DNA of 63,660 nucleotides, counting the filler, from Albugo candida (Eukaryota): assembly GCA_040437565.1 (NCBI GenBank). It is 34 parts of 34 records of this genome, joined end to end, with 100 filler letters (N's around TTAATTAATTAA, not from the genome) between each part and the next. Parts side by side here need not be neighbours in the genome. Positions count along the whole stretch, not along the records: positions 5,820 to 7,652 come from JBDOQK010000404.1; 33 more parts are not named here. One strand, written 5' to 3'. The translations under genes and the position numbers were made by a program. Position 1 is the stretch's first letter. Every line of letters starts with the position of its first letter. Below, piece by piece: positions 5,820 through 47,117 of this stretch. The notes beneath the pieces are model-generated. The model did no database searches. It was not told where the DNA came from and worked only from the letters and a program-made list of their open reading frames with translations.

Positions 5820-6000
5820 CCAGCGAGGTGAAAGGTTCTCGTGTGTAAAAGCGCCTGGTCACATACTTTTTTCGCTCCCAACAGGGATAATTTTATTATT
5901 ATTCTTAGAGAAAGGTATGATAGATATAAGAGTGTTGGAGATGGAGAGGAGCTTTAAAAGCTTGGTGCGAAGGCTTTTATAGGATGTGATCCTTCAATGC
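5820..6000 (-). mobile_element. Possible LTR-like segment
   Basis: On the minus strand, TATAAAA near 5980 is followed by a CT-rich tract and AATAAA near 5895, the U3-R-U5 order. No termini were found. Confidence 0.25.
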
Positions 6001-7129
6001 ACCCTTTCTTTAAAGCTATAAGTGTACGTTGGTTGGCTTGTAGTGGAGAGGAAAGGATGGATGGACAAGGTTGTGTTTGTACTTGTGCAAGCATAACATT
6101 TTACCCTTTTGGGATCAGATGTACTTTTACCTTCTCGTGGTTGATCCTGTTAGTACCCTTTATGGGGAACTAAAAGAAGTACTTTTATTATTATTATAGT
6201 CTCTCTTAAATAAAAATATCTTTTACATAAACTAAATAACTTTTGACTACTATTAAGCCTTCCTTAAAATGTTGTTGCAATAAATAATGTTCTCCTTATT
6301 AGCTCTAATAATTACTTGAATAACAGAATATTTAACATTAACTAAAACGTGTTATGAAATGACTAACTTTTTAAACAAAGGCCGATGAGAGTATTCTAAT
6401 GCGCACATAAATAAACCTGGTCACCTTTATATAAAACTGAAGGTCTATGTATTCTCCTTCTATCACTTGCAAAAAAAAAGGGAACGACAAGTGCAACTTG
6501 TGCATCAAATAACCCACATTTAAAAACATATGAAACTATTCCAACAATCAGATCTAATGTGAAGGCAGAAGAACATGAATCTCCTGAATCTAATTGACAT
6601 TGTGTAATAAAACAAAAAAAGCGTGCTATGTCTAACTAGGTAGTTTTATTGCCATTTTTTTTTAAAAAAATCTTAAAGATGATTTTAGGCATAAAATTGC
6701 TTTTTTTCGAAAAATGAAAAAATAGCCAAAATTTGTGAATGACACCCTTTGGGTTTGAACTCCATTTTTTTTTGATGTCTCTCTCAAGATTGAGCCATTT
6801 TTTACATAGACGTTTATAAGCGAAATATATGTAGTTTTTTATGCTCTATTTAATGAATGTATTTTTGTCGAAAGCTGACTATAAAAAGTGTCCCCTACAG
6901 CAGTAAAAACTGTATTCTAAATTTGTGCGGAAAAGTCCACATTTTAATTATAAACCAAAATTATGGTTTACATAGGTAGATAGAGAAAAAAATTCTGGAT
7001 AGAACCATCTTAGAAATATTCCATCAAAGTCTTTTATTTTGGGTAACTTACTTTGAGGTAAATGTTAAAGATCATGAAAAATGCTTCCCAAATCAAAAAA
7101 AAAAAAAAGCGCATTGTGTTGCTGCGGAA

Positions 7130-7320
7130 GGCTAAATAATTTGATTGGCTAAAAATTGCCTCAATCAACTCTGGGAACTATTTTTATTGGCTCGTTGAAA
7201 CGCGCTAAAGTTTTAGTACATATTCTCCCACTTTTTTTCTTCAACCCTTCTTTCCTTTTTTTTTTTCTTCTTTATAACTTTCTTAACATTGGAAATTTTG
7301 CAATCGTTTAATGATTCAAG
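7130..7320 (+). promoter_or_regulatory. Putative promoter and first exon
   Basis: ATTGG (CCAAT) boxes near 7144 and 7186, GAAACGCG at 7197, a pyrimidine tract at 7230-7285, then ATGATTCAAG|GTGAGT. Confidence 0.45.
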
Positions 7321-7639
7321 GTGAGTTATTATAGCTTACTCAGTGAAACGGTCGGCAGAGGTGTGCGGAGTTAGTAGGTGAACGGACACGCAAAGTCTTC
7401 GTGCTTTGCCCAAGCCTTGTAGCTGAACCTCCAAGTCATACCAAAATGTGCTGAGTCAGTAGGTGAACGGACACGCAAAGTCTTCGTGCTTTGCCCAAGC
7501 CTTGTAGCTGAACCTCCACCACGTTTTTTTTAAGCTTTGAACCGACACGTATAGTCTTCGTGCTATGCCCAACTCCAGTAGAAGCTTGATGCTGTTGACA
7601 CTAGAAATAGACGGTTTACTGATCTTTTTTTAATTCTAG
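7321..7639 (+). other. 319-nt spliceosomal intron carrying a triplicated hairpin motif
   Basis: AAG|GTGAGT donor, TACTGAT branch site at 7617, then a U-tract and CTAG acceptor. A 61-bp perfect repeat lies at 7373-7433 and 7458-7518, with a diverged copy at 7538-7572. Confidence 0.6.
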
Positions 7640-7752
7640 GTATATTATTTTTNNNNNNNNNNNNNNNNNNNNNNNNNNNNNNNNNNNNNNNNNNNNTTAA
7701 TTAATTAANNNNNNNNNNNNNNNNNNNNNNNNNNNNNNNNNNNNNNNNNNNN

Positions 7753-9079
7753 AAACGCTTTGCAAAGCGTTTTCTGGTTATATCATCACCGAGCGCGAGA
7801 AGAACCCTGTCGCTAGAACTTAAAGCGCCAACGAATGACTCACGTGATATTATACCAGTCTTGTATATATCCAATTCATCAAAGACGGCCCGAACAGCTT
7901 TTTGTAAGCCATGTCGGATCTGCTGGGTTTTACTCCCAGGTCGTTGCCTCTTTTCAATGTTATTATCATCACAAGGGGGTCTCGGCGAAGGTGAGATTAA
8001 GGTTTGCCGATTGAGAATCCTCCGTTTCATTTCGGTGGCTGCTTCATTATTCCGATACCAAGCATGACGATGACTCAGTAAGAGCGAAGCAACTTTAATT
8101 CGATCTTGAAGCGAATGAACTCGTATTTCGTATGATTGTAATTTCGAGGTAGCATCGTGTATGCGATCAATTGAGGTAATCACTGGTCCAAGCCGCTACA
8201 AAGGATTGCGTTTGCAAAAGCAAATTAAGATGATGAGTAAGCACTTACCGAGCAAAAATTCGCGACAGAGTGTGCGATAATTTCAGCTTTGGCTTTTTCA
8301 GAGGCCAATGCTCGAACTGTTCGAGTAAGCTTATGCTTTGTTCTTTCTTCCTCTTTTTGAAAGTCGCGAAGCTGCAATTTATCCAATTCGTTTTTTGCAG
8401 AATGATCCAGCAGTTTTTGCTTCCACGTCTTTATCTGCTCTTGTAGTGAGATACGTTCGTTCTGGAGTAAATTGATGAAGTCAGAGTATTTATATCATTC
8501 TCACAATCATGTTTCCTTTTGATTTCTTGCCTGCAGCGTGTAGAGCTCTTTGTTGCGTTGATCTTCCGCAACATCCACTTGTAGCTCGCATTGTTTCGCC
8601 TGCACTAGCAATTCGAAAACCTTACGTCGCCATGCAGCCAGTAGTTGCGCATAATGAGATTTCTCGAGCTGGATATCATCATGTCTTCGATCTTCTGATG
8701 TTGCTGTAGTACCGGCCAACTCATTGGAAACATGCTGTTCTTGGATTGAGAGCATCGACTCGAGTGCGGCAATTCGACATTGTAAAAGCTGTGTAGACGT
8801 GTCTGGCTGGTTGAATGAGAGCAATTCTGGTTCCTTGTAATAATCAGAACTTCGAGATTCATTCCGAATCTCGTTATTGCGTGTTCTTTGTAAGTCACTT
8901 TTCCATGGATCGTCTGGAGGTAGCGATGATACCAAATTATCAGATCCAAGATAGCTTGAACGAGTAAGCAATCCACGTTCGGTATCTTCGAATGCAGCCG
9001 TTTTGAATCTTATCCCTTGCCGACGGAAATCTGACTCTGTTGTGCCCGTCCAGCGCATTTTTTTGCATCGCATGAACAA
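7753..9079 (-). CDS. CCHCR1/HCR-like coiled-coil protein with an EF-hand (3' partial)
   Basis: LLAAWRRKVFELLVQAKQCE resembles CCHCR1 LLNRWREKVFALMVQLKAQE. Exons ~9079-8531, 8461-8249 and 8195-7753 splice in frame. EF-hand-like VFDELDIYKTGIISRESF follows. The start codon is uncertain. Confidence 0.65.
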
Positions 9080-19274: not shown

Positions 19275-21083
19275 CTTCCTTGGTCGAACCAGAAGAATGA
19301 CTTGGATGATAAAGACTGTAAAGAAATATTCTTATCGAATTTGGATGTCATAACCAGCAATATGAAAGAGTTTTCTAAAATTTCTGACGAAAGTATTCTC
19401 AGTTTTATGGAAGAGGCAGATAAAAGACGTGAGGAGGAAGATAGCTCTTTAGATAATGAAGAAAACGCTGATGACCAGCAGCCACCATTAGATGGCAATG
19501 ATCCAGATGACTTCAGAATGTACTCTTTAGATGAGGAAGATAATGCGATATTAAACATTTCAGATAGAAGAGAAACAAATACATCGTCTTCTTCAACAGC
19601 AACGGGTACAGGTGTAAGAACAGCAAGAAACAATCAAATCGAAGACGTTGAATATCACCGTTGAATATCTAAATTAAATATGGAACAGCGAAAATGTTTC
19701 AACCATATTTTAGATTATGTCAGACATGAAAATTGCGATGAATATCCGTTACGTTTGTTTGTTACAGGAGGAGCTGGAACCGGAAAGAGTCTTCTGATCA
19801 AAGCTCTTTATCAGTCTTTAATTCGCCATTACGATATTGATATGACGAGAGACTTGATTAAATCATCTGTTGCGTTATGCGCATTCACAGGCAAAGCAGC
19901 TTACAATATTAATGGACAAACTATTCATTCGCTGTTTCACTTGCCCGTTAATAGAGATGACATACAAAACTTATCGTCTGATATCTCAAATACTCTATCT
20001 GTTGAAATGTCTGAACTGAAAGTTATTATTCTTGATGAAATCAGTATGATAAGCTCCAGACAACTTCTTTGGATTGATAAAAGGCTGCGAGATATTTTCA
20101 ATATCCAAAAAACTTTTGGTGGCAAGCATGTCTTGGTATTCGGTGACTTTTTACAATTGCCTCCAGTTCATGATAGCGCTATTTATTCTGGCTTTCCAAA
20201 AGATCCTCTGAGACATTTACGTGTACTTGAACTTTGGCATGGATTCAAGGTCCACCGCTTAACAGAAATTATGAGGCAGCGAGACGACGCCAAATTTGCT
20301 GTTGCATTGAACAACATGGCTCGGGGGACAATGTCTTCTGATGATATTGAGCTCTTTCAAAGAAGAACCTTTAAAAACATACCAGCAGAGGCAACCTTGG
20401 AAGGAAACTTGGTGAGATTGTTTGTCACAAATAAATTGGTCGATCAATGCAATATCGAAACTATAAGTGTTATGAACACAGAAAGGTATACTTCAAGATG
20501 TTATGATACTATTGTTGGACAAGGAGGTAATGCAATTGCAAGACAAAAGCTATTAGAGTACGCCGCAGATACTAGCTTACCATACAGTAAGACTGGATCT
20601 TTATCTACCGAATTACAGCTACAGCTGGGGGCTAGATATATGATCACTAGCAATTTGGATACATCTGATGGTCTCGCGAATGGTTCTACTGGTTATTTGA
20701 TGAAAGTAGATCTGGGAATAAATAACAGAGCTAGTGCATCAAGTAGTAATGATGATAGTAGTAATCAAAGCACAAACAATGATAAGAAACCTTTGCGTGT
20801 TTGGATAAAAATGGAAAGTGAAACAGCAGGACAAAAGAAAAGAGCTGAATATAGAAATGTGATAAATGCTAATGATAACATATCTAACGACTGGACTCCA
20901 TTAGAACCTATAAGTAATAAGTTTCAAGTTGGAAGAGCAAATAGACAGCTGTTCGTCAACCGTGTTCAATTTCCTATCGTCTTGGCAGAGGCAATTACAA
21001 TTCATAAGAGCCAAGGTGCAACATACAAGAAAGTTGTTCTTGATTTATCCAAAGGAAGTTCGCCTAGCCGATCTTCGCTGTAT
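19275..21083 (+). mobile_element. Helitron-type PIF1 helicase domain with one in-frame stop (19662-19664)
   Basis: PIF1 motifs TGGAGTGKS, AFTGKAA, GQTIHSLF, ILDEISM, FGDFLQLPPV, IMRQRDD, NLDTSDGLANGSTG and QFPIVLAEAITIHKSQG. The upstream ORF at 19302 is in the same frame. Confidence 0.88.
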
Positions 21084-21280: not shown

Positions 21281-21302
21281 TTTTTTTTAACGAAGACTGA
21301 AA

Positions 21303-22992
21303 ATGACTAAACAAGATAATACTACCCCTCTTAACCCTGGACAACCCCCTGCCAAGACAGCCGCCTTGGATCCCAAGTACGATATCTTGGATGAAGGACT
21401 TGAAGATGAGGAAATGGAAGAAAACGAACTTCCTGGTACTTCTGGTTCTAAGGCTCAAACCAAACTTGATAAACAAGTATTGGATGACGACGTTACTGAA
21501 AGTAACGATCGTATACTTAGTAAGTCTCAGCAAAAAGCTGTTGAGCATAAGTCTGCTGTTCAACTTGTTCAGTTTCAGGAAAAGCTTGCTTCTTGGGAAA
21601 GTAAGCTTCTATCTGATGATTACTCAGAGGTTGAGAAAGCCGACAAGATGATCCCTATAATCCAGAAACAAATTGATAAATTAACTGGTAAAGGAACTAA
21701 TGTCTCTAACGGGTCTAATGACACCATAAAGGGTAGTCAACCTGTTAACAAAATTAAGGCCATCCCTTCCAATGAGATGCCTTTTTTTCAGCTTGAGGAT
21801 GATCTTCCTGAGGAGAAGACTGATAATAAGCACAGTTATAAAGATGCTGATGCTTTCATTGGCTCATTCGAGTCAACTATCAAGGATGTCTATGAAATGG
21901 ACATCAACAAAGTTTGGAAAAAGTATATTTCCAATGCTTTCATGAAAAGCAAAAATAATAATTATCGTCGCTGGTATAATATTCATATCAAAGATGTAGA
22001 GAACGATGATGTAAAATGGTCAACTATTAAAGATATGATCAAGCATCGATTCAACGAGAATACTGAAATGACAAATATCGACAGATATTTATTCATTAAA
22101 CAAAAAACAAATGAATCATTGCGTGTATATGTTGACAGATTTATGGAATACGGTCAAACATTGCCCGAGGCTGCTAAAAATGGAAGTGAAATGTTTCATG
22201 CGGCTAAATTTATTAACTCATTGACTAATGAATACAGAGATGTAGTTAAGTTATCTTTAAAGAATAACAAAAAAGATGGCGAGGAAAACTATTATCCTCG
22301 AAGCATGTCAGTGTTGTATAATTACATCCAAAAGAACATGGGTGATCTTCAAGAAAGCTTGCACCTCATGAAAAAGAGCTCAAACTCTTCCAACGGTAAG
22401 GGTTTTAAAAGAGACTCTAAGGATGATGAAACTACTGAGGCTAAAAAGTCTAAGTATGATACTACCGACAAAGGTAAGAAAACAGGACAAGGCTCCACTT
22501 GTACCTACTGCAATAACGCCCCCTACTCTCCTGACCACTTGAAGGGTTGTATTGTCTATCTTCAAAGTGATGCATACAAAAACCGTATCATCAAACAAGA
22601 GAAGAATGAGAAGTACAAAAATAATAATAATCCCAAATATGGAAACAAAAAATGGGAAAAGAAGGTACCTATTTTATTTTTACAAATTGATAATGTTCAT
22701 GAAACTAATTCAGTAAATAATTATAGTAAAACCCTGGATGAAATTGAAGAAGATATGAATGATGTCTTTGAAGAAATTGGTGATAAATTAAATTTTGATA
22801 GCAAAAAGTATCATCAAAAATTTAATCCTATTTTAAATAAAAAAATGATTTTAAATCATAACTCAGATGAAAAAATTTTATGTTACTCAGTCAAAATAGA
22901 CGAATTGAGATCCGAGGATCTTTCCCCATATTCTCCGCTTATTACTATTAACAATGAGAATCTAGTAACTTTTATGGATACTGGAGCAACTA
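21303..22992 (+). mobile_element. Ty3/Gypsy gag-protease (3' partial)
   Basis: Gag motif IKQKTNESLRVYVDRF, zinc-knuckle-like CTYC-x8-H-x3-C, and aspartic protease FMDTGAT at the contig end. Confidence 0.85.
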
Positions 22993-38555: not shown

Positions 38556-39914
38556 TTACTTGGAATTGTTCTTTTTCTTTGAAGAAGTAGTAGAACGCGT
38601 TTTCCTTGATCTTGAAGAAGCGATGACTTTAGCATTTTTATTGCTGTGTTTATTGCGATCAGCTTTCTTTCTATTTGCGTTATTAATAGAAGGTACAAAC
38701 TTATTATTAGAAGTCTGTGCGTTTCTTCTTTTCCAATATAATTCAATATGGTACTTTGAATCAAATTGTGATTCTTTTTCCCATGTATTCTCCTTAGGAT
38801 CATCATAGCCTTTCCAGTGAACTAAATATTCATATTCACCATATTCACCACGATGTGCGACAATAGCTTGAACTTCATAAACATCATCATCGAGAACGTT
38901 TTCTGTTGTAGAATTTGAAGTTTTATCTTCACGGATCAATTTTATATGATGTGTAGGTACGTCTCGAGATAATAAGTTATTAGCAGGATCTACTAAGATG
39001 TATGAGTTGTTACTACTGTATCCCGAAATGATAAAAGGACCACTAAATTTGGTGTCGACTTTTCTGTTTTTATCAATATTTTTAATCATGACTTTTCTTC
39101 CAATAGGATACTTTTCATCAAGAACACGATGGTTCTTTTTGAATCTAGCATGATCCTGTTCTTGGGTTTCCTTTATTAATTTAGAAATTTGAGGAATTAC
39201 AACTTCTTGAGCATATTTCAATCGTTGTGCAAGTAATGATGTATCAGCTTTTTCGGTACTTAAAGTAGGTTTTACTTTTGAATAGTCAGTGAAGCCATTT
39301 GGCTGTTTATTAAATAGAATGGAATAAGGTCTAGACTTATGAATTTTGGAATACTTTAAGTTCATGGCTAGCTGAATACCGTTGAGATAAAGATCCCAAT
39401 CGTCATGCTTACCACGTAACATTTTCACAATAGCTGCTTTAGCAGTACCAACAAATCTTTCTGTAACACTGTTACCGAGAGGATTATAGGGTAGTGATAA
39501 TCGTCTATCAATCCCTGATAACAAGATAAGTTTAGATACGACTTCGTTAACAAACTCAGAACCGAGATCACTTGTAAGTACTTTTGGAAATGAAAATAAA
39601 CAAAATATACTAAGTAATTCTTTAGCTACAGACAGAGCAGTTTTATCAGGAAGTGCGCGTAATATGGTAAAACGTGAAAAGTGATCTACTAAAACTAAGA
39701 TATAATTGTTTCCTGAAGCAGAGGTAATATCGAATGTACCTAAGTCCATACTCCAGTGATCCAATGGTTCTTCTGGTAAGATACTTCTAAAAGGATGATA
39801 ACCCACTTTAGAAATGTTATGATGAGCACAAGCGTCACAATTAGAAATAACTGTGGTTATTTGTTCTCTCATATTCTTCCAGTGCATTTTGTAGTCGTGA
39901 TGAATAGTATTCTC
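38556..39914 (-). mobile_element. Ty3/Gypsy chromovirus integrase with chromodomain (5' partial)
   Basis: Cx2C of the zinc finger, DDE core (SMDL, TSDLGSEF, TERF), GPF motif, and chromodomain YEVQAIVAHRG..YEYLVHWKGY...NTWE. Confidence 0.95.
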
Positions 39915-40064: not shown

Positions 40065-40137
40065 GCGCGGCTGGCGCAATAGATAGCGTATCAGACTTCG
40101 AATCTGGGGGTTGCGGGTTCGAGTCCCGCGTCGCGTA
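40065..40137 (+). tRNA. tRNA-Arg(TCG), possibly a pseudogene
   Basis: Acceptor GCGCGGC/GTCGCGT, anticodon arm TCAGA-CTTCGAA-TCTGG, T arm GCGGG-TTCGAGT-CCCGC. The D-loop has AG where GG is normally conserved. Confidence 0.85.
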
Positions 40138-45474: not shown

Positions 45475-45611
45475 NNNNNNNNNNNNNNNNNNNNNNNNNN
45501 NNNNNNNNNNNNNNNNNNTTAATTAATTAANNNNNNNNNNNNNNNNNNNNNNNNNNNNNNNNNNNNNNNNNNNNTTACCTATTTTTGAAAAAAAAAAATA
45601 TAATAAAAAAC

Positions 45612-47117
45612 ATGTCTACAAACCCTAATAACAATATGGCTATCATTCAAATGTTCAATCATATTCAGAATATAAACCGCAACAACGCTCAAATTTACAA
45701 GATGATTTTAGAAAAGCGTATGATCATGATGAATTTCTTGAATACCTTGGGTCTTTCAGTCCATGAAAATTATTTCAGATTGTTCCCACTCGATGCTTTC
45801 GCATCCACAGAATTCGAAGTAGAAACAGAGGAAGGAGAAGTTGTCCGACAAAAGTTTGACAAGTATATCAGATGGCACCTTTCTTTAAATGACAGCCGAG
45901 GAGGTAGCTATAGTAGCTTCCAACGTCATTATCGCGTTGATAGAGATACTTTTGAGTATATAGTAGAAAGATTGGAACAACACCCATTGTTTGTATCTTC
46001 AGCACACAATTTTACTCCATGCTGGCTCCAATGTGCCTTTGTTATTTGGAGATTGGCTAATACCCATATTAGCTACAGAATGGCATTCACTAACTTTGGA
46101 GTATCAGATGGAAGTTTTATAAACTTTACAAGACGCGTTTGCCAAGCATTAATTGAAGTTTTCAAGCAGGAAAGAATTGTATGGCCCACTACACCAGAAA
46201 GAGCTGAACAAATCAGACAAGGATTTGCTTCACCTGCAAATGTATATAGAAGAAACAGTAACAGACGCCAAATAAGATTGCAAAATGTTATTGGAGCTCT
46301 TGATGGTAAAAATGTAGTCATCCATGCTCCTACACCTCAAGAGTACGGAGCTCAGTTCATGGACAGAAAGAGTCAGTATAGTGTCAAACTAACTGCTGTC
46401 TGTGATCATCTTTGTAGGTTTACCTATATTCGTGTTGGTGACTCAGGTAATATAAATGATGAAAAAGAGAGAAAAATAGTTTAGTACCGTATCGTTAATA
46501 AATAGTACAACACTCACATCACTTATTATACAGGTCGCAGTCATGATGCAGCTGCCTTTGCTCTAAGTATGATTCCTACCTTTATTAATAATCGTCAAAG
46601 ATTCTTCCCTTTGCCCAATTCGTACATAGTTGGGGGTACGTACACAATTCCATATTCCTATTCCACAAATCATCCATCATTACCATTATGAAATACCCTA
46701 CTGATTAAAAAACTAAATTAATTTTTTATAGATTCTGCGTACCCTATGAATGTACACTTACTCATCCCCTTCCCGCAATCAGAAAGCAGAGTCAACTCAA
46801 AGAAGAAATTCAATAAAGCTCTTTCTTCTACTAGAATGGCAATTGAGCGTGCTTTTGGTCTTCTTGTTGCTCGTTGGAGATTTTTGGGGAAAGAAGTATT
46901 TATGATCGATATTCAAGACATTTGTATGGTCATTACATCTGCATGTATTCTTCACAATATTTGCATTGACATGGATGACAGCACTAGTTTCCTGGAAAGC
47001 GAAATTTTTCCAAGACGAGAAGATGAAGATGAAGAAGAAGATGAAGCCAACGTGACGTCAAGAAGAGCCGTCGCTGCTGCAATCTCAAGACGCAACGCAG
47101 AAATGAATTCTTTATAA
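45612..47117 (+). mobile_element. PIF/Harbinger transposase (DDE_Tnp_4), apparently intact, three exons
   Basis: Exons 45612-46446, 46534-46635 and 46732-47117 give VIGALDG, GRSHDA, GDSAYP and RMAIERAFGLLVARWRFL. Confidence 0.93.

Follow-up and report, generated by a model that had tools for sequence, protein, structure and literature searches.

What is a hairpin present in three copies doing inside a putative first intron on a short contig of the Albugo candida assembly GCA_040437565.1? The window that we analysed, a stretch of 63,660 nucleotides, consists of 34 short contigs joined by spacers, and the feature is located on one of them, C404 (JBDOQK010000404.1, window positions 5820-7652). 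A first-pass annotation had taken the hairpins for a splicing element that binds a protein or senses a ligand, located in a protein gene's first intron, and had counted a single covarying base pair as the evidence for selection. The analysis below suggests a different setting: the hairpins seem to belong to a three-armed domain in a repeated, non-protein-coding fungal unit, of a family that ends in a self-cutting ribozyme, rather than to an ordinary gene.

The hairpins are found at 7390-7409, 7475-7494 and 7549-7568, and a check on the sequence confirmed these positions and their letters. They lie within a 44-nt unit that occurs three times (identity 100%, 100% and 82%; spacing 85 and 74 nt). 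Over a longer stretch of 72 nt, copies 1 and 2 remain alike (97% identity), and copy 3 is changed at 8 of the 44 positions. Both stem changes previously described for copy 3, A-U to U-A and C-G to U-G, are present. Since the loop is closed by a U-G pair, the hairpin is better drawn with a 7-bp stem and a 6-nt loop; the alternative register, CACG with CGUG, was unfavourable (+3.1 vs -7.6 and -6.2 kcal/mol). In simulations of 8 random substitutions (400,000 trials), an intact 6-bp stem with at least one double change arose by chance at a frequency of 0.020-0.028, so that the single covarying pair is by itself weak and at best suggestive. The near-identity of copies 1 and 2 effectively leaves two distinct sequences.

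The predicted fold is considerably larger than the reported hairpin. According to the pair probabilities, three arms with linkers of 0-2 nt sit on one closing helix (7351-7358/7592-7599, p 0.98), and a second closing helix (7340-7347/7615-7622, p 0.71) covers the putative branch point. A further hairpin at 7320-7340 (7320-7328/7332-7340, p 0.88) pairs the putative 5' splice site. Each arm carries one of the repeated hairpins at its apex and has a basal stem of its own: 7360-7365/7437-7442 in arm 1 (7360-7442, p 0.99), 7443-7450/7520-7527 in arm 2 (7443-7527, p 0.95; interior as in arm 1) and 7530-7538/7581-7589 in arm 3 (7530-7589, p 0.97). When the three copies are set in their common register, none of the 10 pairs is lost and there are 3 double changes; 23 of 500 column shuffles match this result, and relatedness inflates counts of this kind. 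The basal stems of arms 1 and 2 were compared by hand owing to a 2-nt indel; both have UGUG at the 5' side, which is paired to CAUA in one and CACG in the other, and two outer G-C pairs are replaced by A-U. Among the confident pairs of the fold, 18 of 100 are G-U.

The arms may also contain a recurrent internal motif. The signature of the loop E (sarcin-ricin) motif is AGUA opposite GAA between flanking helices. Within the intron, all five GAAC words and all five AGUA/UGUA words could be matched one-to-one in nested partner positions, giving three AGUA/GAA and two UGUA/GAA placements, and the flanking pairs are kept with 2 double changes. The words lie towards the ends of each copy; the candidate motifs fall at 7373-7376/7425-7427 and 7418-7421/7380-7382 in arm 1, whose interior recurs in arm 2, and at 7577-7580/7539-7541 in arm 3. 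Energy models do not score such motifs, and in arms 1 and 2 the proposed loop E drawing competes with Watson-Crick helices. Taken together, the arm-specific basal stems, the two further double changes and the 18 G-U pairs make selection for RNA structure on the plus strand likely. The covarying pair of the first-pass annotation is real, and it is no longer the whole of the evidence, as further double changes and the basal stems add support.

Could the arms instead have arisen by neutral tandem duplication in a mobile repeat, the stems being generated or repaired at the DNA level by template switching at quasi-palindromes, without any RNA function? The folding energies are compatible with this. 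Folding was more favourable on the plus than on the minus strand (-90.3 vs -75.9 kcal/mol; z -1.64 vs +1.06), and the plus-strand value was not significant for the intron (7 of 100 shuffles as good), nor was it in a second test (z -1.17; 27 of 200 shuffles as good). The single arms were unremarkable (z -0.30, -0.20 and -1.73), and when the repeats were held fixed and the spacers shuffled, 61 of 300, 20 of 300 and 17 of 250 sequences folded equally well. The double-change frequency of 0.02-0.03 was moreover obtained before allowing for case selection, and C404 is itself a repeat. Finally, an identical palindromic hexamer occurs at 7532-7537 and at 7582-7587, one on each side of copy 3; the two hexamers form the basal stem of arm 3 and could be a duplication footprint too. 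Other observations do not fit neutral duplication. Repair at the DNA level would be expected to leave inverted repeats that match perfectly, whereas the fold has 18 G-U pairs on a single strand, and four different closing stems tile the region with linkers of only 0-2 nt. The ensemble was also far better defined than the null, with a diversity of 16.7 vs 66.7 +/- 19.4 and 71 vs 23.6 pairs at p>0.9, and neither value was reached by any of 250 spacer shuffles, although both measures were picked after the fold had been seen. We therefore consider neutral duplication rather unlikely.

The domain nearly fills a putative spliceosomal intron at 7321-7639 on the plus strand. Its signals are well formed, with AG/GTGAGT at the donor (7321), TACTGAT at the branch point (7617-7623), a T-tract and TAG at the acceptor (7639), and they show the hallmarks of U2-type introns, namely a GT donor, a CTRAY branch point, a pyrimidine tract and YAG. 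Comparable signals in the 23 AT-rich contigs of the window occur at 0.04 donors and 0.28 acceptors per kb. The intron core has a GC content of 48% vs 32% upstream. For the other introns of the window, the first-pass annotation had given a typical length of 55-95 nt; on another AT-rich contig of the assembly, C268, the nearest acceptors to 7 candidate donors were found at 51-78 nt. The putative first exon ends with an ATG and the following bases at 7311-7320, whose coding status is doubtful, and the putative second exon is represented by the last 13 bases of the contig (7640-7652), which ends there.

These signals, with an ATG 10 nt before the donor, would suit a protein gene starting MIQGILF whose first intron contains a cis-regulatory splicing element, bound by the gene's own product or by a ligand. 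The pairing of both donor and branch point in the predicted fold fits such regulation, intronic autoregulatory structures are known from fungal genes (PMC8216456, PMC12311795), and a repeat amplified tenfold could encode a transposon protein. Only 7 codons are visible, however, and no overlapping contig was found among those of the assembly that would extend C404 in the 3' direction; an extension in the 5' direction gained 294 nt.

At 6111-6182 on the plus strand, C404 contains an HDV-like ribozyme, with P1 at 6111-6117/6142-6148, P3 at 6129-6131/6139-6141, L3 at 6132-6138 and the catalytic C at 6170. P4 has a loop E at its base, and an offset base separates P2 from P3. The predicted cut falls between 6110 and 6111. 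Including C404, we parsed 15 members of this ribozyme family, the others being located on C5776, C1508, C3978, C4109, C1811, C6439, C5382, C2077, C2031, C3851, C2920, C4585, C979 and C6115. Counted on the 13 members with an intact 5' part (thus leaving out C6439 and C6115), P1 has 7 of 7 pairs in 10 members and 6 of 7 in the remaining 3, while a G-U pair at the first position of P1, all three P3 pairs and the catalytic C are present in every one. Double changes occur across the members in P1, P2 and P3. The loop-E word in P4 is AGUA in 7 of the 13, UGUA in 1 and another word in 5. Of 11 further contigs examined for the L3 word, 2 belonged to the family and the other 9 were chance matches.

The sequences around the ribozyme are also shared. 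A U-tract precedes the cut in 13 of the 15 members, and a 14-nt motif, at 6029-6042 on C404, is found 96-105 nt before P3 in 5 of the 15, from two subfamilies; a search with this motif returned 8 matches, 7 of which were on small AT-rich contigs, compared with 2 for a control. AATAAA follows P3 at a distance of 77-88 nt in 8 of 8 members examined, in AT-rich sequence and with no control. On C404, the region 5820-6110, on the plus strand, has a U-tract where it meets the predicted cleavage site, holds no ATG-ORF longer than 38 aa, continues in C2639, and corresponds to the 3' part of the body of an upstream member. Downstream of the ribozyme, an AT-rich tail (6183-6620, plus strand) recurs on C1508 and C5072 as far as the AATAAA near 6606.

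It is followed on the plus strand by a promoter-like module at 6689-7263. Its elements are a pyrimidine tract and two CCAAT boxes, the latter as ATTGG near 7144 and 7186. The module is shared with C836 (82% identity) and with C560 (76% identity; different upstream flank), and it probably acts as a promoter. C404 can thus be read as parts of two members in a row, the first represented by its 3' end and the second by its promoter and 5' end; by analogy with its relatives the second, downstream member would likewise end in a ribozyme. The paralogue on C836 has neither the ATG exon nor the hairpin units, and no ATG-ORF longer than 33 aa. It could be tiled through C1219 (97% overlap) and C3851 (99% overlap) to a ribozyme, which gives the order promoter, about 1 kb of structured non-coding sequence, motif, U-tract and ribozyme. 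The same order is found within 500-850 nt on C2854, C2920 and C979, and in 13 of 13 stretches examined the longest ATG-ORF was 12-70 aa.

The bodies of other members contain structured modules of their own. The C1219 region folds at z -3.5 (20 shuffles), and C1219, C2854 and C2920 each have a tandemly duplicated module that is unrelated to the three-arm unit. On C1219 (284-361) the module consists of tandem 40-nt bulged hairpins with 12 of 12 pairs kept, one double and two single changes, a test on two rows in which significance is unreachable. The C2920 module has, by eye, one C-G to U-A change; the C2854 module has single changes only, with 2 broken cells. Short members with a CCAAT and CRE-like promoter (C2854, positions 1-523, C2920, C1288 and C4585) have a module of 40-60 nt, one- or two-fold, around a conserved UCGUAGAA word, and on C2854 an acceptor-like TAG is immediately followed by a perfect donor. 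No similarity was detected between the C404 intron and the bodies of other members (z at most 1.2 in 8 comparisons), and a model search gave nothing under E 2.5.

The family context argues against an ordinary protein gene with the start MIQGILF: C404 is a multi-copy repeat with an HDV-like ribozyme upstream, and a paralogue with the same promoter lacks the exon, the intron and any long ORF over about 1 kb. A similar TTTAATG in C2854 and C1288 opens a frame of 2 codons only. The gene model proposed at first is accordingly not supported, and nothing points to ligand sensing. A protein gene with a regulatory first intron, as set out above, is in our judgement an improbable though not negligible explanation.

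From which organism does the unit come? The large contigs of the assembly have a GC content of about 43% and contain three complete RNA polymerase second subunits, and the small contigs contain one further fragment. A second-subunit fragment on C2938 is very AT-rich and intron-free, and possibly comes from a fungal linear plasmid or DNA virus, not from a nuclear gene. Transposon pieces make up most of the AT-rich small contigs; of 14 frames, 4 pass the Pfam cut-off or carry clear transposon domains, and the pieces include a PIF1-like helicase (19665-21080), a retrotransposon gag (21291-22988), an integrase with chromodomain (38559-39914) and a sub-threshold DDE endonuclease fragment (45576-46481). 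C404 is probably derived from a poorly covered, AT-rich fungal passenger in a mixed assembly, a fungus that we tentatively take to be Mucorales-like. The contig at 34433-36201 has a GC content of 62% and bacterial-type frames (a His/Met-rich protein and, by eye, the start of a PAS sensor), and would on this basis represent a third organism in the assembly. A stretch about 97% identical to window positions 5820-6067 is present in two sequencing runs of a second organism (X2 and X3), which indicates that the ribozyme family is not confined to this sample.

In run X1, from which the assembly may have been made, the read depth of contigs identical to C404 was 50-53 vs 4-15 for 6 diverged relatives among the pieces listed, so that the C404 unit appears to be amplified roughly tenfold. 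Along C404, filtered depth records gave 30-72 over the arms, 3-4 at 7556-7652 and 0 at 7246-7369; the zero is not probative, and the low value at 7556-7652 weighs against the reading preferred below. Both this amplification and the head-to-tail order of ribozyme, spacer and next promoter recall retrozyme- or satellite-like elements, for which tandem repeats combining promoter and ribozyme provide precedents as reviewed in PMC6765202 and PMC7229834. Tandem units would then be cut ribozyme-to-ribozyme into monomers, possibly circles, and be copied by a foreign reverse transcriptase, the arms doing no more than compacting the RNA or binding the enzyme. Three observations make such a life cycle unlikely here: other members (C560, C1288) start at the promoter, not at the ribozyme, and have unrelated upstream flanks; a joint from 7652 back to 5820 was not seen in run X1; and an intact intron is unexpected after reverse transcription.

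Searches for relatives of the domain itself gave no homologues. In agreement with the initial view that the element does not resemble the TPP riboswitch, snoRNA boxes or familiar ribozymes, none of the 10 Rfam 15 matches at E up to 10 overlapped 7321-7639, and the only RNA identified by Rfam in the whole window was a tRNA-Arg(TCG) at 40065-40137. Rfam also misses the HDV-like ribozyme at 6111-6182, and its silence on the intron is therefore weak evidence. For the hairpin unit, a metagenome scan gave at least 120 stretches, the best of those listed with 28 of 44 identical positions and none of them homologous; a prokaryote scan gave 3 matches with different spacing, at chance level, and of four viral scans three gave no match and one gave 7 chance matches. 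The unit occurs only on C404 in the assembly, whose fungal part is incomplete, and no long inverted repeat was found within 6800-8300, neither of which supports a subterminal repeat of a transposable element or an introner.

Several candidate identities were rejected. A look-alike on C4639, considered as a fourth copy, was not significant for the size of the genome (blastn E 28, nhmmer E 60), and its match to profile R1 is by construction, as the profile was built with it; a looser one on C6620 had an E value of 9.4. The C4639 segment (240-369) is a 130-nt GC-rich indel relative to the large contig C31; on the minus strand it is closed by a 9-bp stem. U6, 5S rRNA, tRNA, the twister, twister-sister, hairpin and hammerhead ribozymes and group II domain V had no Rfam support, and the Helenus and Ajax elements, as characterised in PMC10886601, do not fit.

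A related question is whether the excised intron could be the product itself, an undescribed snoRNA-like or catalytic small RNA with the transcript as mere host. In favour of this, the host appears to be non-coding and the fold takes up the whole of the intron between donor and branch point. Against it, Rfam gave no match at E up to 10 inside the intron. By eye, the three copies have neither an H box nor C/D boxes in common (copy 3 lacks CUGA), and the arms do not allow a complete HDV-like fold: the strand expected to form the 3' side of P1 pairs locally and there is no fitting partner for P2. We regard this as very improbable.

The reading that we prefer, at a probability of roughly 0.4, is that 7340-7622 is a selected, tandem-duplicated RNA domain near the 5' end of a Pol II non-coding transcript that ends in a ribozyme, in which the arms are docking sites for one protein and the closing helices mask the donor and the branch point. 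Such a unit would run from a promoter through a structured body and the conserved motif to a U-tract and an HDV-like ribozyme. One module would have been multiplied by tandem duplication, with selection keeping the fold; each arm would be locked by its own basal stem and present the same apical hairpin and loop-E-type internal motif, and the arm-specific stems would insulate the near-identical copies against cross-pairing. The arms might serve as repeated docking sites for a host RNA-binding protein or for the protein of a partner element, with the number of arms setting the avidity. The closing helices would fold 280 nt out and thereby shorten the intron, and the donor and branch point would stay masked until the fold is opened or remodelled.

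More speculatively, the family could represent a class of Pol II non-coding RNAs in fungi that has not been described before. An HDV-like ribozyme would cut their 3' end, leaving a U-tract that bears a cyclic phosphate, and their bodies would be fitted with protein-binding modules that are interchangeable and multiplied in tandem; on C404 the intronic array would gate its own splicing. A U-tract with a cyclic phosphate is a U6-like end, suited to binding by Lsm2-8. We hold this broader proposal to be doubtful.

How does the unit compare with known systems? HDV-like ribozymes from fungi cleave and have widely variable gene associations according to Li and Breaker (2017, PMC5640933). The ribozyme at 6111-6182 resembles the fungal variants presented there in its nested HDV layout, the loop E at the base of P4 and the offset base between P2 and P3, but the pair at the cleavage site is G-U in 13 of 13 members whereas C-G is typical of those variants, and its place is a fixed one, at the 3' terminus of non-coding bodies and preceded by a U-tract. 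The triple hairpin itself is not such a ribozyme. The main text and three supplementary files of PMC5640933 name no Mucorales genus, and the alignments that list species may bear on novelty; in the mostly open-access literature covered, no paper joined HDV-like ribozymes with Mucor, Rhizopus or Mucoromycota genomes.

Like retrozymes, the SINE-like repeats of Schistosoma and newt satellite transcripts, as reviewed in PMC6765202 and PMC7229834, the units are non-coding, multi-copy, structured and ribozyme-bearing, with a promoter inside the unit and a head-to-tail arrangement on C404. They differ from these hammerhead-bearing repeats in having an HDV-like ribozyme, conserved sequence upstream of it, a start at a CCAAT promoter and a probable intron. 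Many dispersed copies of an HDV-like ribozyme are also a feature of R2, L1Tc and RTE, where, as summarised in PMC6765202, the ribozyme is at the 5' end and heads a conserved ORF-bearing element; here there is no ATG-ORF longer than 40 aa within 1150 nt downstream. The intronic autoregulatory structures of RPL7B and RPS13 share with C404 a structured first intron that could mask or join splice sites; they are located in single-copy protein genes and conserved across species (PMC8216456, PMC12311795), in contrast to C404, for which no homologue or host protein was found.

The three-arm module, known so far from the sequence of one locus with effectively two distinct copies and no homologues found, is undescribed, whereas fungal HDV-like ribozymes and ribozyme-bearing non-coding repeats are kinds already known. 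The fixed place of the ribozyme, at the point where a promoter-led non-coding body finishes in a U-tract, suggests that it is used naturally to form 3' ends, and the fixed layout offers a direct test of what fungal HDV-like ribozymes do. Within this family the three-arm domain would be one module, a candidate for an RNA that binds protein multivalently or gates splicing.
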